Shown in pieces: positions 1 through 11,064 of a DNA stretch of 11,064 nt. The translations under genes were made by a program, and so were the position numbers. Position 1 is the first letter of the stretch, and each line of letters opens with the position of its first letter. Where the stretch lies: positions 1 to 11,064 of IMG/VR virus record IMGVR_UViG_648276661_000004. The stretch is one strand, 5' to 3'. The notes below the pieces were generated by a model that saw only the letters and a list, made by a program, of their open reading frames with translations, searched no databases and was not told the origin of the DNA. This stretch comes from a virus. Lineage: Duplodnaviria > Heunggongvirae > Uroviricota > Caudoviricetes.

Positions 1-690
1 GTGCGCCAAAGATGCGGTGAGGTCTTTCGTTATGCAATCATAACTGGCCGAGCTGAATACAATCCAGCACCTGATTTAGCTATCGCTCTGGCCGTTCCTA
101 AGCAAAAACACCACCCATTTTTATCTGCCGAAGAGTTGCCTTATTTTATTCGAGATCTGGAAGCGTATACCGGCAGCATCATCACAAAAAATGCAACAAA
201 GATAGTTATGCTTACCGGTGTACGAACCCAAGAGATGCGCTTTGCTACATGGGATGAGGTTGATCTTGAAAAAGGTATATGGGAAATCCCAGCAGAAAGA
301 ATGAAAATGCGCAGAACCCATCTTGTGCCATTATCAACGCAGGTAACAGAATTATTCAAGCAACTGAAACCTATCACGGGACATTACCCTTACATTTTTA
401 TTGGCAGAAATAACCGCAGTAAACCGATCTCGAAAGAAAGCGTTTCACAAGTAATTGAGCTGCTTGGTTATAAAGGACGGGCTACTGGTCATGGATTTCG
501 GCATTCTATGTCGACCATACTTCATGAGCAAGGATTTGATAGTGCCTGGATTGAAATGCAATTAGCTCATGTTGACAAAAATAATATTCGAGGTACCTAT
601 AATCATGCTCAGTATATAGAAAAAAGAAGATATATGTTGCAGTGGTATGCTGACAGAATACTTCCCCCTTTATCCAAAACTCCATTATAA
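1..690 (+). CDS. int: Tyrosine recombinase / P4-type integrase, C-terminal 229 aa (5' end truncated by window start)
   Basis: ORF runs from the window edge to TAA at 688-690. C-terminal catalytic region motifs HGFRHSMSTILHEQG and RGTYNHAQYIEKRRYM (conserved Tyr region) are typical of P4-family integrases. It converges on the cargo cassette. Confidence 0.9.
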   Translation: MRQRCGEVFRYAIITGRAEYNPAPDLAIALAVPKQKHHPFLSAEELPYFIRDLEAYTGSIITKNATKIVMLTGVRTQEMRFATWDEVDLEKGIWEIPAERMKMRRTHLVPLSTQVTELFKQLKPITGHYPYIFIGRNNRSKPISKESVSQVIELLGYKGRATGHGFRHSMSTILHEQGFDSAWIEMQLAHVDKNNIRGTYNHAQYIEKRRYMLQWYADRILPPLSKTPL

Positions 691-698
691 AATACAGA

Positions 699-725
699 CT
701 GGCAGCCTAAAAATAAGGCTGCCAG
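699..725. terminator. Convergent-gene hairpin (9-bp perfect stem CTGGCAGCC / GGCTGCCAG, 9-nt loop) between int and the cargo operon
   Basis: Perfect inverted repeat read directly. On the minus-strand RNA the hairpin is followed by a U-rich run (UCUGUAUUUUAU); on the plus strand the downstream tract is weaker. It lies between the stops of two convergent genes. Confidence 0.45.
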
Positions 726-736
726 TGATTACAAAG

Positions 737-1270
737 TTACAATCTCCTATTGAGATCATGTTTGTTTTTTTTATTTTTTAGTTCAATTATAAAATTAACA
801 TTAGATGCAATCACAATATAGAGAGCTATAAGCTGTAAATAGCTCAACATTAGCAAAAAAAATATACCAATTGCAACAAAAAAACTTGGAATATGAATAA
901 ACAGCCAAGATTTAATGATGAACGGCTTTAAAACAACTCCTATTAAAAGAAGAGATAACACTATTGCGGATAGTACCACAACACCAACAATGATCTTGAC
1001 TCGCTCACTATCCTCATCTGAAAAAATAGCATCCACTTTTGATGGCTGCGTAATCCTCAATATTGCATTAGGGTATAGATATGCTATCCATATTCCCATA
1101 ATAGTAAAAACCATTACAGAAACATTCTGTAAAATAGAAATTAATGGGTCTAAATCCTGACTTTTAATATCAGAGCGATATGCAAAACTGGCCCAAACAA
1201 TAGCAGCTAATGGAATGATGTGAAGATATTTGAGACGCTCTCGAGTTTTATCTTTCATATACATCACCAA
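737..1270 (-). CDS. Hypothetical multipass membrane protein (4-5 predicted TM helices, basic C-terminal tail), second gene of the cargo cassette
   Basis: 177-aa ORF with hydrophobic segments YLHIIPLAAIVWASFAY, VSVMVFTIMGIWIAYLY, IIVGVVVLSAIVLSLLLIGVVL and WLFIHIPSFFVAIGIFFLLMLSYLQLIALYIVIA, ending KNKKNKHDLNRRL. The maximal ORF begins with TTG at 1270 directly abutting the upstream stop (1271-1273); the true start is more likely ATG at 1264 or ATG at 1258 (GGTGA 5 nt upstream). AT-rich codon usage differs from the backbone. Confidence 0.7.
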   Translation of the reverse strand: MVMYMKDKTRERLKYLHIIPLAAIVWASFAYRSDIKSQDLDPLISILQNVSVMVFTIMGIWIAYLYPNAILRITQPSKVDAIFSDEDSERVKIIVGVVVLSAIVLSLLLIGVVLKPFIIKSWLFIHIPSFFVAIGIFFLLMLSYLQLIALYIVIASNVNFIIELKNKKNKHDLNRRL

Positions 1271-2431
1271 TCAAGAATTCGCCTGTTCTTCGGAGTTCGG
1301 AGAACTTGTTGTAAAGGCAGCTAGTAGATTATCTCTAGTTAAGTGCAAAGCATTCAGAATTCTACTAGTCGTATAAAACCCTGAATCATCATACTGACCT
1401 ACATCACTAACTAATAATGTATTCCTTACAACGAACTCGTTTAACCAACATGTTCCCCCTACACCTTCTTTTCTAAAACCTAAGTTGGCCCAATCACCAG
1501 CACTAACATTATATTCTTCATTGTACGTTTCAAAAATAGAACGCAACTCTTCTCCTGTAGGAGAGGCTTCTATGGTTAATTCAATCTTTCTAGTATCTCT
1601 TGTTACCTCGCTAGAAATGAATGGAAGACCTCTAAAATACCTTGTCCAGCCAGCATCTGGCTGAACTGATGCGCTAATGACATCCCGTTTGACGAAGTGC
1701 GTTATCTGGTTAGCAATTCTATCCAAGTCGGCTTCATTTGTTAATTTTGTATATTGTTCACTATATATCCTAAGCCACAAATTGTCACCCGAAGCAGAAA
1801 TAAAAGATATACTTAAATAATTTCCATTTTTACCTTCCTTCATTTCTCGACGTTTTGGCCTAATATTACTATGTAGTGTCATGAAATCACGAAGATATTT
1901 ATTCATCAGTTCTGTATCTGAAATTGAACTATGGAATTTTATTGATGCAAAAATATTTAAAGAGGGAACAAACCAATAATAAGCGGGCTCACCCCATATA
2001 ACATTTTCACCATCTAACTCTTCATCAGCACTGTACAAACGATCATCACTTAAGGCAGAGTCAGAGCGAATACCATAAACTCCATTCCCATTTCCAATTG
2101 CTCGCCATAAAATTACAACATAATCGCCTGTGCTCTCGTTACGCTCAATTCCCTTCAAGTAAACTTTTTTCCTTGAAGAATACCCGGGAGTATTGTCATC
2201 CCAAAGTAATGTATCTGCCAATGAAGTCCTACTTGAGAACCAAGTATGTAAGGACTCCAGCATATCGGCCATCATCAACGGCTCATAATATGAATCACCT
2301 CTCTTATGGAATCCTAATTGTTTATATTTGAAAAAAGTGACCAGTCCTTCGCTCATTTGCGCACCATTAGTTGAAGTTGAATGCTTCGATTTTAGAGAAA
2401 ATCTAACCAGAAGAAGATGTGTGATGAACAT
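1271..2431 (-). CDS. Hypothetical soluble protein (386 aa), first gene of the cargo cassette; no family recognised
   Basis: Long ORF with ATG at 2429-2431 preceded by AAGGA 9 nt upstream; an alternative start is ATG at 2354-2356 (M26). No canonical Walker A/P-loop seen. Contains a Gly-rich stretch IGNGNGVYGIRSD and an acidic cluster SDDRLYSADEELDGEN. The stop TGA sits directly against the start region of the downstream membrane-protein gene, suggesting translational coupling. Confidence 0.75.
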   Translation of the reverse strand: MFITHLLLVRFSLKSKHSTSTNGAQMSEGLVTFFKYKQLGFHKRGDSYYEPLMMADMLESLHTWFSSRTSLADTLLWDDNTPGYSSRKKVYLKGIERNESTGDYVVILWRAIGNGNGVYGIRSDSALSDDRLYSADEELDGENVIWGEPAYYWFVPSLNIFASIKFHSSISDTELMNKYLRDFMTLHSNIRPKRREMKEGKNGNYLSISFISASGDNLWLRIYSEQYTKLTNEADLDRIANQITHFVKRDVISASVQPDAGWTRYFRGLPFISSEVTRDTRKIELTIEASPTGEELRSIFETYNEEYNVSAGDWANLGFRKEGVGGTCWLNEFVVRNTLLVSDVGQYDDSGFYTTSRILNALHLTRDNLLAAFTTSSPNSEEQANS

Positions 2432-2469
2432 TTAATCATGTCCTTAAATTAATGCAACCTTCGTGCGCA

Positions 2470-2488
2470 GTGCTTTCCCCGCCTCGCC
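2470..2488. other. cos site core: 19-nt P2/P4-type cohesive-end sequence (reverse complement reads GGCGAGGCGGGGAAAGCAC)
   Basis: Plus strand 2470-2488 is GTGCTTTCCCCGCCTCGCC, the reverse complement of the P2/P4 cohesive end as I recall it. It lies between psu and the cargo cassette, where cos sits in P4. The 19-mer is recalled from memory, not searched. Confidence 0.65.
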
Positions 2489-2588
2489 CGCCCGCTTTGC
2501 GGGGCAGTTTTAATGCAGTTGCACTGACACACTCAGACCGCGCCGGGAATGGCGCAGTCTGCAGAAAATGAGGCAGGAAAACGCATGC

Positions 2589-2622
2589 AAAGCCATGCAC
2601 CTTATCGATGCATGGCTTTTTT
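2589..2622. terminator. Intrinsic terminator hairpin downstream of psu (stem AAAGCCATGCA / TGCATGGCTTT, 9-nt loop, T-run on plus strand, A-run on the other side)
   Basis: Perfect 9-11 bp inverted repeat followed by TTTTTT on the plus strand and flanked by an A-tract, so it can act in both directions. It sits 30 bp beyond the psu stop (2653-2655) and probably ends the late sid-delta-psu transcript. The plus-strand orientation is the stronger intrinsic terminator. Confidence 0.5.
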
Positions 2623-2652
2623 CAGTAAAAACAGGCGGATTTTCGGGGAATT

Positions 2653-3225
2653 TTACACAGACTGACGTGATGCCAGTTGCGCACTTTTACGCGAAAAAAT
2701 CATGTTCTGCGCAGGGGTGAATTTTTCACGGCTGTCATCCACCGAAGCCGCGTCAGGCCTGAATCCGATGGTCGTTAAAATGTCGCTATCCTGTGCGGAA
2801 TAATTAATTTTTTCACCCTTTGCAAGCCAGGACAGAAGGGCTTCACGCAGGGCATCTGTGGCACGCTGTATGGCACAGTTTCGGGCAATGGCCGTCAGCT
2901 CACTGTAGCCCATCAGCTCCGGTGCCAGTGCCGCCGCCAGTGCTGTGCCGTGCTGCTGCATAAAATCATTCAGCCGGTCGCGGATGCTGATGTGCTGAAC
3001 GGCTTCATGCGAACGAATATAACGACCGGCGGCCTGATTCACCTGCCATTTTCTGACTTCGATAATATTGCGTAATTCGTCCAGGCGACTGACGTTTCTG
3101 CCTTCCCCGGACAGAAGCCGCAGATATTCCTGTTCGGCCGCAGACAGCTCATTTTTGCGTTGCAGCCATGCTGCTTTGTTATTCTGACAGGTGTCAAAGG
3201 CCTGCTGTAAGGCTGTGCTTTCCAT
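2653..3225 (-). CDS. psu: Polarity suppression protein Psu (190 aa)
   Basis: 190-aa ORF at the last position of the sid-delta-psu late operon. The length equals P4 Psu and the N-terminus MESTALQQAFDTCQ is consistent with my recollection of Psu. Confidence 0.85.
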   Translation of the reverse strand: MESTALQQAFDTCQNNKAAWLQRKNELSAAEQEYLRLLSGEGRNVSRLDELRNIIEVRKWQVNQAAGRYIRSHEAVQHISIRDRLNDFMQQHGTALAAALAPELMGYSELTAIARNCAIQRATDALREALLSWLAKGEKINYSAQDSDILTTIGFRPDAASVDDSREKFTPAQNMIFSRKSAQLASRQSV

Positions 3226-3298
3226 CGTTATCTCTTTCTCATCATGCTGAAGAATAAAAATACGGTGTGCGGCGACGGCCGGTGTTAACCGGCAGCCC

Positions 3299-3799
3299 TC
3301 ATTCCAGACGCAGCGAATATGATTGTGTTTTTAAGCGTACTGGCGGCAGTTCCTGTTTTTCATGCAGGCTTTCTGCCAGTTCGTCCGGCGTGACCGGGCG
3401 GACAATAAAACGGTTGATGGTCTGAAGCGTTTTAAACACCAGACCACATCCCGGATCCGTGCACACATAAAAACGCTCGGTGACTTCCTGAGACAGACGC
3501 CGCGATGTTCTTGACAGTGCAAGGCCTTTACATCTCCGACAACAATATCCGGTAACAAGCATTCTTTTCGGGCGTTTCATACTGCCGGAGGCTGACGTCA
3601 GTGAATCGCGGTATCTCTGTTTGCCTGAAATGTATTCCATTCCTGAATCTTTACAGTCAGAGAAAAAGCTTTCACTCGCTTCAAATGTCGCAGAGCAATA
3701 AATATTCCGGCACTGTGCAATCATTATCTTGGTGCCATCGTCCATGAAATGTGCGCGACGGGTGTGAGCAACATGTCCACACGACGGGCAGTAAATCAT
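3299..3799 (-). CDS. delta: Delta late-gene transcriptional activator (Ogr/Delta zinc-finger family, tandem-domain form, 166 aa)
   Basis: Two Ogr-like Cys motifs: CPSCGH...CRNIYC at the N-terminus and CCRRCKG...CTDPGCG in the second half. The 166-aa length equals P4 Delta. Its ATG overlaps the sid stop in an ATGA arrangement (3796-3799). Confidence 0.9.
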   Translation of the reverse strand: MIYCPSCGHVAHTRRAHFMDDGTKIMIAQCRNIYCSATFEASESFFSDCKDSGMEYISGKQRYRDSLTSASGSMKRPKRMLVTGYCCRRCKGLALSRTSRRLSQEVTERFYVCTDPGCGLVFKTLQTINRFIVRPVTPDELAESLHEKQELPPVRLKTQSYSLRLE

Positions 3800-4530
3800 G
3801 ACAGCAGCCCTCTGGCCTTAAGCTCTGCTGCCTGCTGGTCTATTTTGTCCTGCCACACCTTGCGCTGTGCCGGTGTGCCTGCCACCTCATAATCCATGTG
3901 CGGGAGTGTTGCCGCTGACAGTCCGGTCAGCCGGAGAACCGGCTCGCCGGTGAGGCTGATTTGCATCTGTTTAATTTTCTGTTCCAGCGATGATTTCACC
4001 TGCTGCATGACAGCTTTATCGGGTGCGACGTAGCCCTGATGGCCGGTGGTGTTGGCGAGCGGATTTTCCTGTACCAGGATACTCAGATGCATTGCCCGGA
4101 CAAGCGCCTCACAGGTTTCATTCAGGGCGTGTTCCAGCTCATGCTCTGCATACAGACTCAGAAGGTGATGATGTGCCTTCCGGTAGGCGGTGGCCGTGCT
4201 GTCACACGCCCCTTTCAGGCGTTCACGTTCGAAATTCAGCACCACGGCCAGATTGTCATATTCCTGTACCAGCTCCCGGCGTGCCACGCGCTCAATGCGG
4301 CGCTGTTTCAGCTCGTCGCTCAGGACACCACCGGCTGCACGAAAGGCCGTGCGCCAGTCGTCAGCGTCGTTTCCGTCGGTCTGCGCCAGCACATTTTTTT
4401 CCTGCTCTGCCCGTTCAATGGCCGTGATGGTCTCATCCATCAGGCGGGCGTTCTCAAGGTGGGCGGCTCTGGCCTTTTCCAGTTGTGCCAGTGCGGGTTG
4501 CAGATATTCAGGGATAGTGTGGTCAGACAT
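3796..4530 (-). CDS. sid: Capsid size determination protein Sid (external scaffold), 244 aa
   Basis: Start chosen at ATG 4528-4530 with GAGGAG 7 nt upstream, giving 244 aa, the length of P4 Sid. The ORF track starts 6 codons earlier at a GTG. Coiled-coil-like, charged composition. First gene of the late operon, 4-nt overlap with delta. Confidence 0.85.
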   Translation of the reverse strand: MSDHTIPEYLQPALAQLEKARAAHLENARLMDETITAIERAEQEKNVLAQTDGNDADDWRTAFRAAGGVLSDELKQRRIERVARRELVQEYDNLAVVLNFERERLKGACDSTATAYRKAHHHLLSLYAEHELEHALNETCEALVRAMHLSILVQENPLANTTGHQGYVAPDKAVMQQVKSSLEQKIKQMQISLTGEPVLRLTGLSAATLPHMDYEVAGTPAQRKVWQDKIDQQAAELKARGLLS

Positions 4531-4564
4531 TTTCCGGCTCCTCGTCACTTCAGGTTAAGAAAAT

Positions 4565-4620
4565 TGTGACGTACACCGGACAACAACACGACGTATTGCA
4601 GATGTGCCAGCCCTGACACA
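4565..4620 (-). promoter_or_regulatory. Psid-like late promoter region with two Ogr/Delta-type TGT-N12-ACA dyads (4565-4582 and 4603-4620)
   Basis: Two exact TGT-N12-ACA elements spaced 38 bp centre to centre. With a minus-strand transcription start near 4556 they would be centred near -18 and -55, the arrangement I recall for P4 late promoters. The sid SD and ATG follow at 4545-4528. Confidence 0.6.
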
Positions 4621-4699
4621 GGAGACTCATCCTCACACCGGCAAGCCAGGAAAAGGTCGCAGGAAAAACCGGCTTACTGTTTGTTTTTTTATATTTTAC

Positions 4700-4803
4700 T
4701 GTTCACCTCTGTTCACCTTAATAAAAAAGATAAGTAATACAGTAAGTTAAAGGGTGAACAATCGCAGTAATGACTGTTCACCGTCTGTTCACCACTGTTC
4801 ACC
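4700..4803. repeat. Cluster of TGTTCACC octamer iterons (alpha-protein binding type; ori-like)
   Basis: TGTTCACC at 4700-4707, 4710-4717, 4775-4782, 4786-4793 and 4796-4803, plus the inverted copy GGTGAACA at 4753-4760. The same octamer recurs in the crr-like repeats about 4.8 kb away, as expected for P4 ori/crr. Confidence 0.6.
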
Positions 4804-4907
4804 CGCTCATGGACTTTTTGTGCTGTTTACTACTGTTTGTTTTTATTAATTCGCCGGGAATGAATAAGAAGAAACGATTTGTATTTCACTATAAAAATTA
4901 CAAATTG

Positions 4908-4937
4908 CTTTAAGTGGCTTTAAATGACTTTAAGTGG
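4908..4937 (+). repeat. Three tandem 10-bp units CTTTAAGTGG / CTTTAAATGA / CTTTAAGTGG upstream of vis
   Basis: Direct tandem repeat read from the sequence, in the Psid/PLL control region. Function unknown; a candidate protein-binding array. Confidence 0.4.
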
Positions 4938-4962
4938 GAATGAACAAAAAACACACAACCAT

Positions 4963-4980
4963 TGTAAGGCTGCCGGAACA
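4963..4980 (+). promoter_or_regulatory. TGT-N12-ACA dyad, candidate Delta site of a PLL-like late promoter driving vis
   Basis: Exact TGT-N12-ACA (TGTAAGGCTGCCGGAACA). If centred at -55, transcription would start near 5026, about 57 nt upstream of the vis ATG at 5083. Confidence 0.45.
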
Positions 4981-5082
4981 AATCCCCCCTGTTGCGTCTG
5001 CTGAAAATATTCACAAAATAAAGCGCTACCCGAAGCCGGACGGACTTATCCGGTGCTGTATGGACATTAACGAGGTAGCCCG

Positions 5083-5349
5083 ATGCAAGCTGTTTTTTCT
5101 TCCCCGTCTCCTGCCCCTGTGACGCCACTGATGCCGCTGCCGGACATCACGCAGGAGCGTTTTTTACGTCTGCCGGAAGTGATGCACCTGTGCGGCCTGT
5201 CACGCTCGACCATCTACGAACTCATCCGTAAGGGGGAATTTCCGCCGCAGGTGAGTCTTGGCGGTAAAAATGTGGCCTGGCTGCACTCTGAAGTCACTGC
5301 ATGGATGGCCGGGCGCATCGCCGGACGCAAACGGGGGTACGACGCATGA
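5083..5349 (+). CDS. vis: Vis / AlpA-family DNA-binding regulator-excisionase (88 aa)
   Basis: Helix-turn-helix core [19 protein letters not shown] characteristic of the AlpA/Vis family. ATG at 5083 has GAGG 7 nt upstream. The 88-aa length and the position between the late promoter region and the immunity region match P4 vis. Confidence 0.8.
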
Positions 5350-5384
5350 TGATGCCTGTTCTGCAAAAACTCCCTTTTTCTGGC

Positions 5385-5414
5385 TTGCCTTTTTCCGGCA
5401 TTTGCGGATATAGT
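5385..5414 (+). promoter_or_regulatory. Sigma70-like promoter (TTGCCT - 18 bp - TATAGT), candidate PLE-type promoter for the immunity/early operon
   Basis: -35 TTGCCT at 5385-5390 and -10 TATAGT at 5409-5414 with an 18-bp spacer. It sits 36 bp after the vis stop and about 30 bp upstream of seqA. Confidence 0.5.
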
Positions 5415-5443
5415 TTTTCCGCTGCCGCAAAATCGGCAGCCGG

Positions 5444-5474
5444 GCGTGAGAACCCGAGCAATCTAACGGCGACA
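5444..5474 (+). promoter_or_regulatory. seqA-like antisense target (blocks GTGAGAA ... TCTAACGG complementary to the seqB-like segment at 5641-5663)
   Basis: GCGTGAGAACCCGAGCAATCTAACGGCGACA shares the two blocks GTGAGAA and (T)CTAACGG with seqC (5687-5730). Both blocks are complementary to CCGTTAGA...ATTCTCAC at 5641-5663. Confidence 0.45.
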
Positions 5475-5477
5475 TAT

Positions 5478-5499
5478 GACGCGCCATGCGTCTTTTTTT
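5478..5499 (+). terminator. Hairpin GACGC-GCCAT-GCGTC followed by TTTTTTT: candidate immunity (premature-termination) terminator just after seqA
   Basis: 5-bp GC-rich stem, 5-nt loop and a T7 run on the plus strand inside the operon leader. This fits the termination-based immunity mechanism of P4/P1-type antisense systems. Confidence 0.45.
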
Positions 5500-5589
5500 G
5501 TGTCGCAATCAACGCCACAGAGCGCCAGATTATGGTGTGGCGTGTGGTTTGCCGTGCAGGTATGATCCTGTTTGCAATCGCATGTTATG

Positions 5590-5670
5590 CCACTGAGTCA
5601 ATGGTAGCTCAGGCGGGGCAGCCTCCGGGCTGGCCGGTATCCGTTAGAGCCGGTATTCTCACCCCCGTCT
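5590..5670 (+). ncRNA. Candidate CI-like (C4-family) antisense immunity RNA containing the seqB-like segment; ends are approximate
   Basis: 5641-5663 (CCGTTAGAGCCGGTATTCTCACC) is complementary in two blocks to both seqA and seqC. It lies between the two targets as in P4. The exact 5' and 3' ends cannot be set from sequence alone. Confidence 0.3.
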
Positions 5671-5686
5671 GGGCTATCGCCATCGA

Positions 5687-5730
5687 GCGTGAGAACTCCG
5701 GCGATAGCGTAACCTGCTATCTAACGGAGG
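5687..5730 (+). promoter_or_regulatory. seqC-like antisense target overlapping the ribosome-binding site of the kil/icd-like gene
   Basis: GCGTGAGAACTCCGGCGATAGCGTAACCTGCTATCTAACGGAGG: the GTGAGAA block lies in the loop of a hairpin (GCTATCGCC 5672-5680 pairing with GGCGATAGC 5700-5708), and the CTAACGG block is fused to the GGAGG SD (5726-5730) of the downstream gene. Confidence 0.45.
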
Positions 5731-5738
5731 CTGCCATC

Positions 5739-5936
5739 ATGGCTACAACCCTTACCCCCTCACACCCTGAATTTGTCTTTGTGTTTGCGGCTGTCCGTCG
5801 CGCAGACCGTCATCCCCGTATCTGCATGCTTCGCACCGTCGCCGGTGATGAACGCAGCGCCCGCCGTTCCCTTGTCCGTGACTATGTGCTCTCCCTTGCT
5901 GCCCGTCTGCCGGTGGTGGAGGTGTCCCGTGCGTAA
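5739..5936 (+). CDS. kil: Kil / Icd-like host cell-division inhibitor (65 aa), first translated gene after the immunity RNA
   Basis: ATG at 5739 with GGAGG 8 nt upstream. The 65-aa product starts [26 protein letters not shown]. Position immediately downstream of seqC is as for P4 kil and P1 icd. The upstream part of the 211-aa track ORF (5301-5738) is regulatory and RNA sequence, not coding. Confidence 0.7.
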
Positions 5937-6216
5937 TAAAAAAGCCCCTCAGACCGTCTCAGCGCGTCATGACGCCCGTGAACACCTCAGCATTGAGGCT
6001 TACCATAAGCTCAACCGCGCCAGCGCCGTATCCCAGTTTGTTGGGGGTGATTTGATTCACCGTGAACTCTCCGGCCTGCATCAGCTCTACATTCCGCATA
6101 TTTTCAGCTACCTGAATGAAGATATTGATTTTGTGCTGAATGAGCTGAAAGCCAAAGGCCTGTGCCGCGATTTTCTCGCCCAGCAGAAAGACCGGGGAGA
6201 CAGGACGCATGTTTGA
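5929..6216 (+). CDS. Hypothetical protein (95 aa), GTG start overlapping the kil stop; corresponds by position to the eta/epsilon region of P4
   Basis: The frame has no in-frame ATG at all, so the start is non-ATG; GTG at 5929 overlaps the kil stop codon (GTGCGTAATAA). The stop overlaps the next gene start by 8 nt. Composition matches the backbone. Confidence 0.55.
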
Positions 6217-6664
6217 TTTTCCCCAGCCCGGTGAGATTTACCGTTCTGCCGGTTTTCCCGATGTGGCCGTGGTCGGCATTCTGGAAGACGGTATTCCGTG
6301 GGAAATGCCGTACCGCTGCCCGGACATTGTCTGGAATCCGTACCGCCGTAAATTCAGTATCCTTGTGCGTATCCTCGCCGACGGGCGCACCACAGACATC
6401 CCGCTGGGGCGTTTTCTGCGGGAATTTACCTGTGACCGTCCTGACCTGTTTAAACGCAGCCCCGTAAACCGGCATGCGGTACTGAAAGAAATGGCCGGAG
6501 ACCCGGAATTACAGAAATGGCGGGAGAAATATCTGGATATTTACCCACAGGACCCTGTTCCGGTCAGCCGGGCGGCACCGGTGGCGCGGGAATGGAGGGA
6601 AATTCCCCGCACGGAGTCTGACCCGGAAATCACCCCGGATAACAGTTACCGCAATTATCTGTAA
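6209..6664 (+). CDS. Hypothetical protein, 151 aa (P4 orf151-like by length and position)
   Basis: ATG at 6209 with GGGAGA 8 nt upstream; overlaps the previous ORF stop, suggesting translational coupling. The 151-aa length and position two genes upstream of alpha match my recollection of P4 orf151. Confidence 0.8.
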   Translation: MFDFPQPGEIYRSAGFPDVAVVGILEDGIPWEMPYRCPDIVWNPYRRKFSILVRILADGRTTDIPLGRFLREFTCDRPDLFKRSPVNRHAVLKEMAGDPELQKWREKYLDIYPQDPVPVSRAAPVAREWREIPRTESDPEITPDNSYRNYL

Positions 6665-6737
6665 TTAAAAAACGACACCCGAAAAATTAAATGTGCGTAT
6701 TCGCGCAGGGATACGCACGTCTTCAGGAGACGCAGAT

Positions 6738-6803
6738 ATGCCTTATCAGTTAATGCAACCGGCACGGAATGCAGTCATCTGTCACAGGGAGGAAAACAAA
6801 TGA
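6738..6803 (+). CDS. Candidate 21-codon upstream ORF ([21 protein letters not shown]) translationally coupled to the 106-aa ORF
   Basis: ATG at 6738 with AGGAG 8 nt upstream. Its stop TGA (6801-6803) overlaps the ATG (6800-6802) of the next gene. Not on the ORF track because it is too short. Confidence 0.25.
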
Positions 6804-7120
6804 AAACACCCTTACCGCCCGTCTTACGCGCTGCCCTTTACCGTCGCGCTGTCGCCTGTGCCTGGCTGACCGTGTGCGAACGTCAGCACCGCTACCCGCA
6901 TCTCACCCTTGAATCACTGGAGGCGGCCATCGCCGCTGAGCTGGAAGGCTTTTATCTGCGCCAGCACGGTGAGGAAAAAGGGCGTCAGATAGCCTGTGCC
7001 CTGCTGGAAGATTTAATGGAATCCGGCCCCCTGAAGGCCGCGCCGTCGCTGTCCTTTCTCGGGCTGGTTGTGATGGATGAACTCTGTGCCCGTCACATAA
7101 AAGCGCCGGTACTGCACTGA
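6800..7120 (+). CDS. Hypothetical protein, 106 aa (P4 orf106-like by length and position)
   Basis: ATG at 6800 with GGGAGG 7 nt upstream. Lies immediately upstream of alpha; 106 aa. Confidence 0.8.
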
Positions 7121-7134
7121 AGGAGAACAACACC

Positions 7135-9468
7135 ATGAAAATGAACGTAACCGCCACCGTCAGCCATGCGCTCGGCCACTGGCCGCGTATTCTCCCGGCG
7201 CTGGGGATTCAGGTGCTGAAAAACCGTCATCAGCCCTGTCCGGTCTGTGGCGGGAGTGACCGCTTCCGTTTTGATGACAGGGAGGGGCGCGGCACCTGGT
7301 ACTGCAATCAGTGTGGTGCCGGTGACGGCCTGAAACTGGTTGAAAAGGTGTTTGGTGTCTCCCCGTCCGACGCGGCCACAAAGGTGGCTGCCGTGACCGG
7401 CAGCCTGCCCCCGGCTGACCCGGCAGTGACGGCTGCCGCCGTTGCTGAAACAGACGCTGCCCGGAAGAACGCTGCCGCACTGGCACAAACCCTGATGGCA
7501 AAAACCCGTCCCGGAACCGGTAACGCCTACCTGACCCGCAAGGGCTTTCCCGGCCGGGAATGCCGGATGCTGACCGGCACACACAGAGCCGGTGGCGTGA
7601 GCTGGCGCGCCGGTGACCTTGTGGTGCCACTGTATGACGACAGCGGCGAACTGGTTAACCTTCAGTTAATCAGTGCTGACGGCCGTAAGCGCACCCTGAA
7701 AGGCGGACAGGTCAGGGGCACCTGTCACATCCTTGAAGGACAGAATCAGGCCGGAAAACGTCTGTGGATAGCGGAGGGATACGCGACCGCACTTACCGTG
7801 CATCACCTGACCGGTGAAACGGTGATGGTGGCGCTTTCTTCCGTGAATCTCCTTTCTCTGGCCAGCCTTGCCCGGCAGAAGCATCCGGCCTGTCAGATTG
7901 TCCTTGCCGCAGACCGTGACCTCAGCGGTGACGGCCAGAAAAAAGCCGCCGCAGCCGCAGATGCGTGTGAAGGTGTTGTTGCCCTGCCGCCGGTCTTCGG
8001 TGACTGGAATGATGCCTTCACGCAGTACGGCGGGGAAGCCACCCGTAAGGCCATTTATGATGCCATCCGGCCACCGGCTGAAAGCCCGTTCGACACCATG
8101 AGCGAAGCAGAGTTTTCCGCCATGAGTACCAGCGAAAAGGCCATGCGTATCTATGAGCATTACGGCGAGGCGCTCGCGGTCGATGCCAACGGCCAGCTTC
8201 TGTCCCGCTATGAAAATGGTGTCTGGAAGGTGCTGCCGCCACAGGACTTTGCCCGGGATGTGGCCGGGCTGTTTCAGCGTCTGCGCGCGCCGTTCTCCTC
8301 CGGGAAGGTGGCCTCCGTGGTGGACACCCTGAAGCTGATTATTCCGCAGCAGGAAGCCCCCTCCCGCCGCCTGATTGGCTTTCGTAACGGCGTGCTCGAC
8401 ACGCAGAACGGCACGTTCCACCCGCACAGTCCGTCACACTGGATGCGTACCCTGTGCGATGTGGATTTCACCCCGCCGGTGGAAGGGGAAACGCTGGAAA
8501 CCCACGCTCCCGCGTTCTGGCGCTGGCTTGACCGTGCCGCCGGTGGTCGTGCGGAAAAACGCGACGTGATTCTGGCCGCACTGTTTATGGTGCTGGCAAA
8601 CCGCTACGACTGGCAGCTCTTTCTGGAGGTGACCGGTCCCGGCGGCAGCGGCAAAAGTATCATGGCCGAAATCGCCACCCTGCTGGCCGGGGAGGATAAC
8701 GCCACGTCGGCCACCATCGAGACGCTGGAATCCCCGCGTGAACGTGCCGCGTTAACTGGCTTCTCACTGATACGCCTGCCGGACCAGGAAAAATGGAGCG
8801 GCGACGGTGCCGGACTCAAGGCCATCACTGGCGGCGATGCGGTGTCCGTTGACCCGAAATACCGGGATGCGTACTCCACGCACATCCCGGCGGTGATTCT
8901 GGCCGTGAACAATAACCCGATGCGCTTCACCGACCGCAGCGGCGGTGTGTCACGCCGGCGGGTGATTATTCACTTCCCGGAACAGATAGCCCCGCAGGAG
9001 CGCGACCCGCAGCTTAAGGACAAAATCACCCGCGAGCTGGCGGTCATCGTGCGTCACCTGATGCAGAAATTCAGCGACCCGATGCTCGCCCGGTCACTGC
9101 TTCAGTCCCAGCAGAACTCAGACGAGGCACTGAACATCAAACGGGATGCCGACCCGACGTTTGATTTTATCGGCTATCTGGAAACCCTGCCGCAGACCAG
9201 CGGCATGTATATGGGGAACGCCAGTATCATCCCGCGTAATTACCGTAAATACCTCTATCACGCCTATCTGGCCTACATGGAGGCAAACGGCTACCGGAAT
9301 GTACTCAGTCTGAAAATGTTCGGGCTGGGGCTGCCGGTGATGCTGAAGGAATACGGACTGAATTACGAGAAGCGCCATACCAAACAGGGGATACAGACCA
9401 ACCTGACGCTGAAAGAGGAAAGCTACGGCGACTGGCTGCCAAAATGTGACGACCCTGCGACAACCTGA
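7135..9468 (+). CDS. alpha: Alpha replication protein: primase-helicase with C-terminal origin-binding domain (777 aa)
   Basis: N-terminal zinc motif CPVCGGSD...YCNQCG (primase type), a Toprim-like region, Walker A GPGGSGKS, and a 777-aa length equal to P4 alpha. AGGAG 9 nt upstream of the ATG. TGTTCACC iteron clusters on both sides are its expected binding sites. Confidence 0.95.
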   Translation: MKMNVTATVSHALGHWPRILPALGIQVLKNRHQPCPVCGGSDRFRFDDREGRGTWYCNQCGAGDGLKLVEKVFGVSPSDAATKVAAVTGSLPPADPAVTAAAVAETDAARKNAAALAQTLMAKTRPGTGNAYLTRKGFPGRECRMLTGTHRAGGVSWRAGDLVVPLYDDSGELVNLQLISADGRKRTLKGGQVRGTCHILEGQNQAGKRLWIAEGYATALTVHHLTGETVMVALSSVNLLSLASLARQKHPACQIVLAADRDLSGDGQKKAAAAADACEGVVALPPVFGDWNDAFTQYGGEATRKAIYDAIRPPAESPFDTMSEAEFSAMSTSEKAMRIYEHYGEALAVDANGQLLSRYENGVWKVLPPQDFARDVAGLFQRLRAPFSSGKVASVVDTLKLIIPQQEAPSRRLIGFRNGVLDTQNGTFHPHSPSHWMRTLCDVDFTPPVEGETLETHAPAFWRWLDRAAGGRAEKRDVILAALFMVLANRYDWQLFLEVTGPGGSGKSIMAEIATLLAGEDNATSATIETLESPRERAALTGFSLIRLPDQEKWSGDGAGLKAITGGDAVSVDPKYRDAYSTHIPAVILAVNNNPMRFTDRSGGVSRRRVIIHFPEQIAPQERDPQLKDKITRELAVIVRHLMQKFSDPMLARSLLQSQQNSDEALNIKRDADPTFDFIGYLETLPQTSGMYMGNASIIPRNYRKYLYHAYLAYMEANGYRNVLSLKMFGLGLPVMLKEYGLNYEKRHTKQGIQTNLTLKEESYGDWLPKCDDPATT

Positions 9469-9484
9469 CCCTCATGGCTCATCT

Positions 9485-9510
9485 GACCGGCATCTGCCGG
9501 TCTTTTTTTT
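9485..9510 (+). terminator. Rho-independent terminator of alpha (stem GACCGG / CCGGTC, 6-nt loop, T8 run)
   Basis: Perfect 6-bp stem GACCGG-CATCTG-CCGGTC followed by TTTTTTTT, 17 nt after the alpha stop codon. Confidence 0.7.
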
Positions 9511-9527
9511 ATCCCTGAATTCCCCGC

Positions 9528-9830
9528 AGGTGAACAATCCACTGCTCATCATTCACCGTGTATTCACCCGTTATCACACTGAAATTAAAAGAGAAAAACG
9601 AAAAGTGAACAGTGTGAACAATCAAATCAAAAAAAACTTTTTTCGCCCTGTGTGATTTCAGTGCGGAGGATTAATCCCCTGCACAAGTCACACCGGCAGA
9701 ATGCCGGAGGTGAAGAATCGAATGTTCACCCTTCACCCATTATTCACCACCTATCACTCTGAAATAAAAGGAGAAAAAAGAAAGGTGAACAGTGTGAACA
9801 GTTCTTTCGAAAAAAAATTTTTTTCCTGAG
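9528..9830. repeat. crr-like cis replication region: two ~120-bp direct repeats with 180-bp period, each carrying TGTTCACC/GGTGAACA-type iterons
   Basis: Copy A (about 9528-9646) and copy B (about 9708-9827) align along their length, for example CATTCACCGTGTATTCACCCGTTATCACACTGAAATTAAAAGAGAAAAACGAAAAGTGAACAGTGTGAACA against CCTTCACCCATTATTCACCACCTATCACTCTGAAATAAAAGGAGAAAAAAGAAAGGTGAACAGTGTGAACA. Each ends in an A-run/T-run. This matches the recalled P4 crr organisation of two 120-bp repeats separated by about 60 bp. Confidence 0.65.
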
Positions 9831-10026
9831 TTAACGTGCGTGAAGATACGTGTAAAAATTAATCGATAGATATTATATGTATAAGGATGTGTATAAATGA
9901 ATTATAATAGAAAAATATAAACGATTTGAATCAAATGGTTATATGGCAATTTTGACTCCTGTGATCTTCCGCCAAAATGCCTCTCCTGAACTCTCCCGAC
10001 GTCAACAACACTCCTTCGGAGGCGAC

Positions 10027-11064
10027 ATGTCAGACAAAGACTTAACCCAGCCCCCAGCAGGCGAGTTTATTATGTTTGCCAGCGGTGACGGAAGAGTGCG
10101 TGTTGAATGTCGCTTTGAGTCAGACACAATCTGGTTATCCCAGGCGGCAATGGCTGAACTGTACGATAAAGATGTTCGCACTATTAACGAACATTTAATC
10201 AATATATTTTCCGAAGGTGAACTTGTTCAAAACTCAACCATCCGGAAATTCCGGATAGTTCGCCAGGAAGGAAAACGTCAGGTTTCCAGAGAGATAGACC
10301 ATTACAACCTCGAAGCCATTCTCGCTGTCGGCTATCGCGTTCGCTCGCCTCGAGGCACGCAATTCCGCCAGTGGGCAACGCAGACGCTTCAGGAATACCT
10401 GATCAAAGGTTTTGTGATGGACGATGAGCGGCTGAAGAATCCGCCTGTCGGTTCATCGGTTGTGCCCGACTATTTTGATGAGATGCTTGAACGCATCCGC
10501 GATATTCGCGCCAGCGAGCGTCGGGTATATTTGCGGGTGCGGGAGATCTTTGCTTTAGCTGCCGACTATCAGCCATCGCTTAAAGAAACCACGCAATTTT
10601 TTCAAACCATCCAGAATAAACTGCATTTTGCCTGTACCGGGCATACCGCTGCGGAACTCATCCACAAACGAGCAGATGCCAGCCAGCCGCACATGGGCTT
10701 GACCAGTTATAAAGGTGAAGAGGTACGTAAGGGCGACGTGACGGTGGCAAAAAATTATCTCACCCAGGATGAGGTCAGCGAACTTAATCGCGTGGTTAAT
10801 ATGTGGCTGGACTTTGCCGAGGATCAGGCCCGTCGTCGTCAGCAAGTCTTTTTGCGCGACTGGCAGGATAAGCTGGATCAGTTCCTGCAATTTAACGACC
10901 GAGAGGTTCTACAGGGCGCTGGTAAAATCAGCAAGAAAATGGCCGATGAAAAAGCGCAGGCGGAGTATGTTCAGTTTGCCGAACAACAACGGCGCTTAAA
11001 AGAAGCCGAAGGCGAGAAGGATATCGCTGGTTTGCTACAGTGGAATAAAGAGTCGAAAAAGTAG
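10027..11064 (+). CDS. RhuM-family protein (virulence protein RhuM-like), about 345 aa
   Basis: Conserved RhuM-type N-terminal region (RVECRFESDTIWLSQAAMAELYDKDVRTINEHL ... AVGYRVRSPRGTQFRQWATQTLQEYLIKGFVMDDERLK). Start chosen at ATG 10027 with GGAGG 4 nt upstream; the track ORF begins earlier at 9943 without an SD. Stop TAG is at the window end. Confidence 0.8.
   Translation: MSDKDLTQPPAGEFIMFASGDGRVRVECRFESDTIWLSQAAMAELYDKDVRTINEHLINIFSEGELVQNSTIRKFRIVRQEGKRQVSREIDHYNLEAILAVGYRVRSPRGTQFRQWATQTLQEYLIKGFVMDDERLKNPPVGSSVVPDYFDEMLERIRDIRASERRVYLRVREIFALAADYQPSLKETTQFFQTIQNKLHFACTGHTAAELIHKRADASQPHMGLTSYKGEEVRKGDVTVAKNYLTQDEVSELNRVVNMWLDFAEDQARRRQQVFLRDWQDKLDQFLQFNDREVLQGAGKISKKMADEKAQAEYVQFAEQQRRLKEAEGEKDIAGLLQWNKESKK

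Follow-up and report, generated by a model that had tools for sequence, protein, structure and literature searches.

Late promoters of phage P2 carry conserved inverted repeats at about −55 that are bound by the activator Ogr, and contact with the alpha subunit of RNA polymerase is needed for activation (PMC3152322). The consensus of these promoters is TGT-N12-ACA (PMC3931495), and both the binding of the activator and activator-dependent transcription via the alpha C-terminal domain are known for P2 and for P4 (PMC3152322). In satellite phage P4, promoters of this type are Psid, upstream of the sid-delta-psu operon, and the late leftward promoter PLL, upstream of vis (ORF88). At P4 Psid, Delta reportedly footprints both −55 and −18, in work that is said to go back to Julien and Calendar in 1995 and to Reiter et al. 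in 1998. A second helper protein acts on the same region, as P2 Cox activates PLL from an upstream binding region and recognizes boxes with the consensus TTAAAG/CNCA (PMC3936717).

Here, we compare these systems with an 11,064-nt stretch of DNA (the window) in which three exact TGT-N12-ACA dyads lie between divergent sid and vis genes. We consider it very probable, judging from the sequence, that the dyads are Ogr/Delta activator sites of two divergent late promoters in a P4-type satellite prophage. The initial annotation had described the region as a divergent, delta-activated control region of the Psid/PLL type, a description that agrees with the identity to P4, with the −55 geometry measured from predicted starts, and with the presence of a gene of the Ogr_Delta family.

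A P4-like prophage adjacent to tRNA-Sec

The window matches a segment of the Escherichia coli Combat2C1 chromosome exactly (NZ_CP019243.1, 2930338-2941401), and in that chromosome a P4-like prophage adjoins tRNA-Sec (selC) between yicJ and yicL. From cos to crr, positions 2489-9823 of the window are collinear with P4 (NC_001609, 11624-4291) at 97.5% identity; identity is 98.2% across 3200-5400. In the part that spans sid, ori, and vis, a position in P4 equals 14113 minus the position in the window. The core set of genes is present in the order of P4, namely psu-delta-sid, ori, vis, CI RNA immunity, the alpha primase-helicase, and crr. Collinearity, together with the encoded two-finger Ogr_Delta, Psu, Sid, and Vis/AlpA proteins, justifies reading the element relative to P4, as had been done in the initial annotation.

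The late operon is on the minus strand. Its first gene, sid (3796-4530, −), encodes a capsid size-determining scaffold of 244 aa that is 97.5% identical to P4 Sid. It is followed by delta (3299-3799, −), whose 166-aa product is a fusion of two zinc-finger domains of the Ogr type (Pfam PF04606 Ogr_Delta, E = 6.8e-22, in two matched stretches). Delta has two CxxC...CxxxxC motifs and each half of the protein aligns to a single-domain Delta of 81 aa. The element itself (3299-3799) therefore encodes a zinc-finger activator, a cognate member of the Ogr/Delta family. The last gene of the sid-delta-psu operon, psu (2653-3225, −; Pfam Psu, E = 1.8e-88), has roles in polarity suppression and capsid decoration.

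On the plus strand, the first gene downstream of PLL is vis, or ORF88 (5083-5349, +), which encodes an AlpA-family excisionase and regulator (Pfam Phage_AlpA, E = 7e-21). Vis is known to act at both PLL and Psid. Beyond vis, three RNA elements score above their Rfam gathering scores, the a1b1 target (5408-5460, +), isrK (5421-5498, +), and the C4/CI antisense RNA (5597-5684, +; 74.5 bits). The alpha primase-helicase gene, recognized from the P4 gene set and Pfam, occupies 7135-9468. Overlapping the region that holds the CI RNA gene is an open reading frame (ORF) of 211 aa (5301-5936, +), in which Pfam recognizes a domain of the Ash family (E = 5.6e-27) and which RefSeq labels as an Icd-like cell division inhibitor.

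Other genes lie toward the two ends of the window. The window opens inside a tyrosine integrase gene (1-690, +) that is unrelated to the int region of P4. Between the integrase gene and psu, at the int-psu defence hotspot where P4 carries gop/beta/cII, are two ORFs (737-1270, − and 1271-2431, −) that have no Pfam hit and that match a pair of candidate defence genes in PADLOC, the first PDC-M18B (E = 3e-16) and the second PDC-M18A (E = 2e-34). Similarity to P4 stops at 9823, and downstream of alpha and crr is an ORF of the RhuM family (9943-11064, +; Pfam, E = 6e-118; PADLOC PDC-S05, E = 3e-173) that runs past the end of the window. The RhuM ORF is likely cargo of a minor hotspot between the primase gene and att.

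Psid and its two dyads

An exact pattern scan recovered all three dyads that the initial annotation had placed near sid and vis, at 4565-4582 (TGTGACGTACACCGGACA), 4603-4620 (TGTGCCAGCCCTGACACA), and 4963-4980 (TGTAAGGCTGCCGGAACA). The first two are associated with sid. Read in sid sense, the distal dyad, corresponding to "site I" of P4 (4603-4620, −), is TGTGTCAGGGCTGGCACA and the proximal dyad, corresponding to "site II" (4565-4582, −), is TGTCCGGTGTACGTCACA. Their start-to-start spacing is 38 bp, or ∼3.6 helical turns. The ATG of sid is at 4530 (−) and is preceded by the Shine-Dalgarno sequence GGAG (4541-4538, −); X02534 marks a potential Shine-Dalgarno sequence at the equivalent place. 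Upstream of both, the nearer dyad ends at a distance of 35 nt from the ATG. Positions are thus as had been claimed, with two dyads 38 bp apart on the minus strand, upstream of the Shine-Dalgarno sequence and start codon of sid.

The sole plausible −10 hexamer on the sid strand is CACAAT (4568-4563, −), a candidate read from the sequence that is overlapped by the downstream arm of the proximal dyad. On the basis of this hexamer and the geometry of P2 promoters PP and PO, transcription is predicted to start at an A at 4556 (−), 7 nt after the −10 and leaving a leader of 26 nt to the ATG of sid. When the start is set there, the distal dyad is centred at −55.5 and the proximal dyad at −17.5, matching the spacing of −55 and −18 that had been proposed for them. 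CACAAT and its counterpart at PLL, CAAAAT, each match the −10 consensus at four of six bases, with A2 and T6 included. A consensus scan of both strands of 4400-5200 identified no sigma-70 −35/−10 pair, as expected for activator-dependent promoters.

Few bases differ from P4 over the whole of 4500-5100, and exact dyads are present at the homologous places in P4 (9493-9510, 9531-9548, and 9133). Alignment to P4 Psid, a comparison that the initial annotation had suggested, shows both sid-side dyads to be identical; the −10, leader, Shine-Dalgarno sequence, and ATG are likewise the same base for base (NC_001609/X51522). Between the dyads a single base differs, 4594, which is an A in sid sense in the window and a G in P4 and most relatives, and one more substitution, at 4636, lies beyond the distal dyad on its upstream side. 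Late-promoter features are not annotated in X51522, NC_001609, or X02534. The last of these records has a "consensus −10" at the equivalent of 4612-4618, a sequence-based guess from 1984 that we rejected as incompatible with the late promoter model because its position falls inside the −55 dyad.

PLL and the intervening origin

The dyad that faces vis (4963-4980, +) has a candidate promoter context downstream of it. A −10 hexamer, CAAAAT, can be read at 5014-5019 (+), and the start predicted from it, at ∼5026-5027, puts the centre of the dyad at approximately −54.5 to −55.5. The initial annotation had likewise described the third dyad as facing vis. By the coordinate relation given above, the starts predicted for Psid and PLL correspond to 9557 and ∼9087 in P4. 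Relative to P4 PLL, the TGT and ACA arms are kept and there are three substitutions in the N12 spacer (AAGGCTGCCGGA in the window, AAGACAGCCTGA in P4). The block GAAAATATTCACAAAATA around the −10 is conserved across most of the two main clades of related elements described below. A search near −18 of PLL for another exact dyad gave none, only candidates with one mismatch and spacers of 11 to 13 bp.

The entire interval between sid and vis is annotated as ori in P4. Type-1 repeats of the P4 origin (TGTTCACC) lie between the two divergent late promoters (4698-4803), and three type-2 repeats of 10 bp (4908-4937) lie just upstream of the PLL dyad. Inside the type-2 repeats and ∼30 nt upstream of the PLL dyad are two exact P2 Cox boxes on the minus strand (4915-4923 and 4925-4933).

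Two other features of the PLL region vary among elements. The predicted leader of vis includes a hairpin-capable segment (GCCGGACGGACTTATCCGGTGC; 5029-5056, +) that is conserved in both clades and has a different loop-side sequence in the second clade (CCGGACGGACACGACCGG). In addition, the dinucleotide at 5001-5002 (+) is polymorphic (CT, CC, and CA types, each in at least nine haplotypes) within an otherwise invariant stretch; it is at approximately −25 of the predicted PLL start, where a second site of the −18 type would fall.

Geometry relative to P2 late promoters

We used the RefSeq record of P2, with its annotated late starts and activator binding sites, as a yardstick. Dyad-like elements in P2 are centred at −55.5 from the annotated starts of PP and PO, −57.5 from that of PF, and −57 from that of PV. 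None of these four promoters has an exact TGT-N12-ACA. The arms in PP, PO, and PF match at five of six bases and the spacer in PV is 11 bp long (TGTCTGGTAGTTCTACA). Exactness therefore does not define a functional site, since every P2 late-promoter site is inexact, and counting exact matches both overcalls and undercalls sites.

Measured from the starts predicted in the window, Psid and PLL share the geometry of the P2 family. As in the window, each of PP, PO, PV, and PF has a partial inverted repeat at −55.5 to −57.5, a weak −10 of the form nAnnnT, and no −35, and they respond to the same family of activators (PMC3152322, PMC3931495). They differ in that P2 sites are imperfect and single, with PP and PO sharing one dyad, whereas sites in the window are perfect and number two at Psid. 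P4-type sites are perfect versions of a consensus that P2 approximates. In sum, sequence features expected of Ogr/Delta-class late promoters were found at the locus, with a dyad at about −55 of the predicted starts, a −10 that lacks a −35, a gene for a cognate activator, and selection on the arms as opposed to the spacer.

Conservation of dyads across related elements

Selection on the arms was evaluated in ∼125 loci of related elements, drawn from E. coli genomes and from viral contigs. The loci form two main clades. In the P4 clade, Sid is 95-98% identical to that of the window, and in the second clade, identity is ∼64%. A scan of genome contigs with Sid yielded only one near-identical locus, and a profile scan of viral contigs yielded no further clade.

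The 150 nt upstream of sid are represented by 53 distinct haplotypes across both clades. Among these, all six arm columns of the distal Psid dyad are invariant and eight of its 12 spacer positions are variable. Six invariant arm columns are uncommon in this region, being present in 3 of 123 sliding 18-mers upstream of sid, the distal dyad among them. The conserved −55 core extends beyond the arms to TGTGyCA-N4-TGsCACA, and in the window only 4603-4620 matches this longer core without mismatch. The −10 is CA(C/G)AAT in all haplotypes, with CAGAAT in the second clade. A similar pattern is evident at PLL, where the arms of the dyad are intact in 51 of 52 haplotypes of the P4 clade and polymorphism is at the centre of the spacer, at 4969-4972 and 4975. 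Outer half-sites that are kept around a centre that is free to vary are the trace that would be expected of a dimer-type DNA-binding protein.

At PLL, elements of the second clade have a different arrangement. Alignment of sequences upstream of vis shows a palindrome of 17 bp whose spacer is 11 bp long (TGTGGTGAAGCACTACA; L005:2380-2400 and others), as is that of P2 PV. A dyad is not obvious upstream of vis in one subgroup of the second clade (L085, L090, L096, L101, L109, L121, and L129).

The proximal dyad and the two-domain Delta

The proximal dyad has a narrower distribution. It is exact and identical to that of P4 in every locus of the P4 clade (∼78 loci). The 46 loci of the second clade all have TGT-N12-AGA at this position, since CAGAAT takes the place of CACAAT as their −10. 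In both clades the two Psid elements are spaced 38 bp apart. An exact site II is therefore a property of the P4 clade and is not family-wide.

Structure of Delta follows the same division. In the P4 clade, Delta is a two-domain protein of 166 aa, and in the second clade it has 80-86 aa and one zinc finger. Tandem Delta occurs with an exact second site in 71 loci and single-domain Delta occurs with TGT-N12-AGA in 46 loci. The initial annotation had proposed that the two-site promoter matches the tandem-domain Delta, and the proposal stands as a correlation at the level of clades, one that is phylogenetically confounded because the comparison rests on two main clades. It fails in a recombinant, L067 (IMGVR_UViG_3300029126_000139, 1-3732). 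This element has a P4-type sid (96% identity) and exact dyads at both Psid sites and at PLL, but its Delta is a single-domain protein of 81 aa that is 77% identical to Delta of L005 in the second clade. Presumably, two fused Ogr-like domains also fit the two half-sites of one dyad more naturally than they fit two dyads.

It is possible, though we hold it doubtful, that the exact −18 site II was added within one lineage, the P4 clade, where it co-evolved with the fused Delta and acts as a brake on, or fine-tunes, the operon of the activator. Were this so, satellites with single-domain Delta would do without site II, having TGT-N12-AGA instead, and would tolerate 11 rather than 12 bp at PLL. Fusion of the domains might then have fixed the spacing of half-sites and allowed for a second, autoregulatory site.

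We find it quite unlikely that the proximal dyad is an accident in which an invariant TGT happens to lie 12 nt upstream of an ACA-containing −10, with only the −55 dyad being of consequence to Psid. The ACA arm is part of CACAAT, and because of this overlap, part of the conservation of the proximal dyad could stem from the promoter itself. Consistent with an accidental origin, the change to CAGAAT that is seen throughout the second clade (46 loci) breaks the dyad and keeps the −10, the spacer of the proximal dyad is mostly different between clades, and P2 late promoters have no second site. On the other hand, the proximal dyad is exact throughout the ∼78 loci of the P4 clade, although divergence within the clade is too low for this to be proof of selection, and the inter-dyad spacing of 38 bp is retained even in the second clade. 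Furthermore, Delta is said to leave a footprint on a second site in P4 Psid centred at −18. We continue to treat the proximal dyad as a putative activator site.

Frequency of the motif and other uses of the region

The initial annotation had called for a scan of the window with the expectation that the three dyads would be its sole exact copies. When both strands of the whole window were scanned for exact TGT-N12-ACA, there were six copies, the additional three being at 6660-6677, 9445-9462, and 10968-10985, roughly the number that chance would produce. By chance, ∼2.5 copies (2.4-2.5) are expected. Among 200 shuffled sequences, 8 had at least six copies, and among 5000 shuffled so as to preserve dinucleotides, 4.2% did. 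The number of bare TGT-N12-ACA motifs exceeds chance only weakly, the motif is low in information, and its count alone is weak evidence, given that six copies compared with ∼2.5 expected are reached in ∼4% of shuffles. Clustering of dyads between sid and vis is a stronger signal than the bare count. When the 552 nt between sid and vis were shuffled on their own, three copies arose in 0.1% of cases, and when the whole window was shuffled, three copies fell within some span of 552 nt in 1.6%.

The three additional dyads were considered as further promoters and rejected, as the context of a promoter is absent from each. The match at 6660-6677 exists because a single base differs from P4; P4 has ACC at that location and hence lacks a counterpart. 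The dyad at 9445 falls within the last codons of alpha, and the dyad at 10968 is internal to the RhuM-family ORF.

These numbers allow for the argument that every dyad is a chance match and that the region owes its conservation to being the P4 replication origin. Six copies against 2.5 expected is a modest excess (p ∼ 0.04), three of the copies clearly lack a function, and the interval that holds the others is annotated as ori. However, such an origin for the dyads is very improbable. Clustering of three copies within 552 nt is rarely produced by shuffling (0.1%), arm columns are invariant across clades while spacers diverge, and dyads are on the correct strand and at −55 from −10-like hexamers, as they are in P2. 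Moreover, the repeats of the origin that are bound by alpha, type-1 (TGTTCACC; 4698-4803) and type-2 (4908-4937), are different sequences.

Similarly, we give hardly any credence to the idea that a different regulator, whether from the element (Vis, for example) or from its helper (for example P2 Cox), uses the dyads as operators: Cox does act at PLL and Psid (PMC3936717) and has boxes ∼30 nt from the PLL dyad, but its consensus, TTAAAG/CNCA, is unlike TGT-N12-ACA and maps to the type-2 repeats, and the same class of dyad is at −55 of late promoters in P2 that are not under the control of Vis. Vis, Cox, and alpha do not fit as proteins that bind the dyads because they have other repeats nearby. 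Binding by Ogr/Delta activators is the interpretation that we carry forward.

Predicted regulation of the late promoters

If the dyads are bound by Ogr/Delta activators, Psid would function as an activator-dependent sigma-70 promoter that has a weak −10, CACAAT, and no usable −35. Delta of the element, or Ogr of a P2-type helper, is predicted to bind at 4603-4620 and to recruit RNA polymerase through the alpha subunit, which would lead to transcription of sid-delta-psu. As Psid would drive expression of delta itself, Delta is predicted to be under positive feedback.

On the other side of the origin, the dyad at 4963-4980 may have the corresponding −55 role for PLL (+). PLL would be the promoter from which vis is read, followed by the immunity and replication genes, and the Cox boxes just upstream probably serve PLL in addition to the dyad.

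The proximal dyad (4565-4582), which is the lower-order site II of P4, is expected to have a different role. It overlaps the spacer and −10 of Psid and is thus located where polymerase must bind, which suggests that it is a modulator. Binding there would most likely limit Psid when Delta is at high levels, and the site would be unneeded for activation.

Comparison with known systems

The dyads are the already described Delta/Ogr sites of P4 Psid and PLL. Nothing departs from the described P4 system, and for this reason the locus is known biology that was correctly recognized. Its importance is mainly one of annotation. The prophage keeps an intact late control region that is identical to that of P4 and should therefore still respond to a P2-type helper. 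The comparisons add refinements to the known system, including an extended −55 core, an exact −18 site that is confined to the clade with tandem Delta, a natural recombinant in L067, and PLL dyads with an 11-bp spacer in the second clade. These are by-products of possible interest for the regulation between satellites and helpers.

Among described systems, P4 Psid is the closest. It is the same locus in a near-identical element and has the same sid-delta-psu operon downstream. The two elements differ in integrase and in cargo, and the one in the window is a prophage integrated at tRNA-Sec. P4 PLL is in the same place upstream of vis/ORF88, with identical dyad arms, −10 region, and leader, and likewise has the Cox-box/type-2 repeats upstream. 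Satellites whose Delta has one domain (such as those in E. coli F95 and CUPS05; phiR73-like) are also comparable, as they have the same order of psu-delta-sid, ori, and vis and an exact −55 dyad. They differ from the window and P4 in having a one-finger Delta, TGT-N12-AGA in place of an exact site II, and at PLL either a palindrome with an 11-bp spacer or none.
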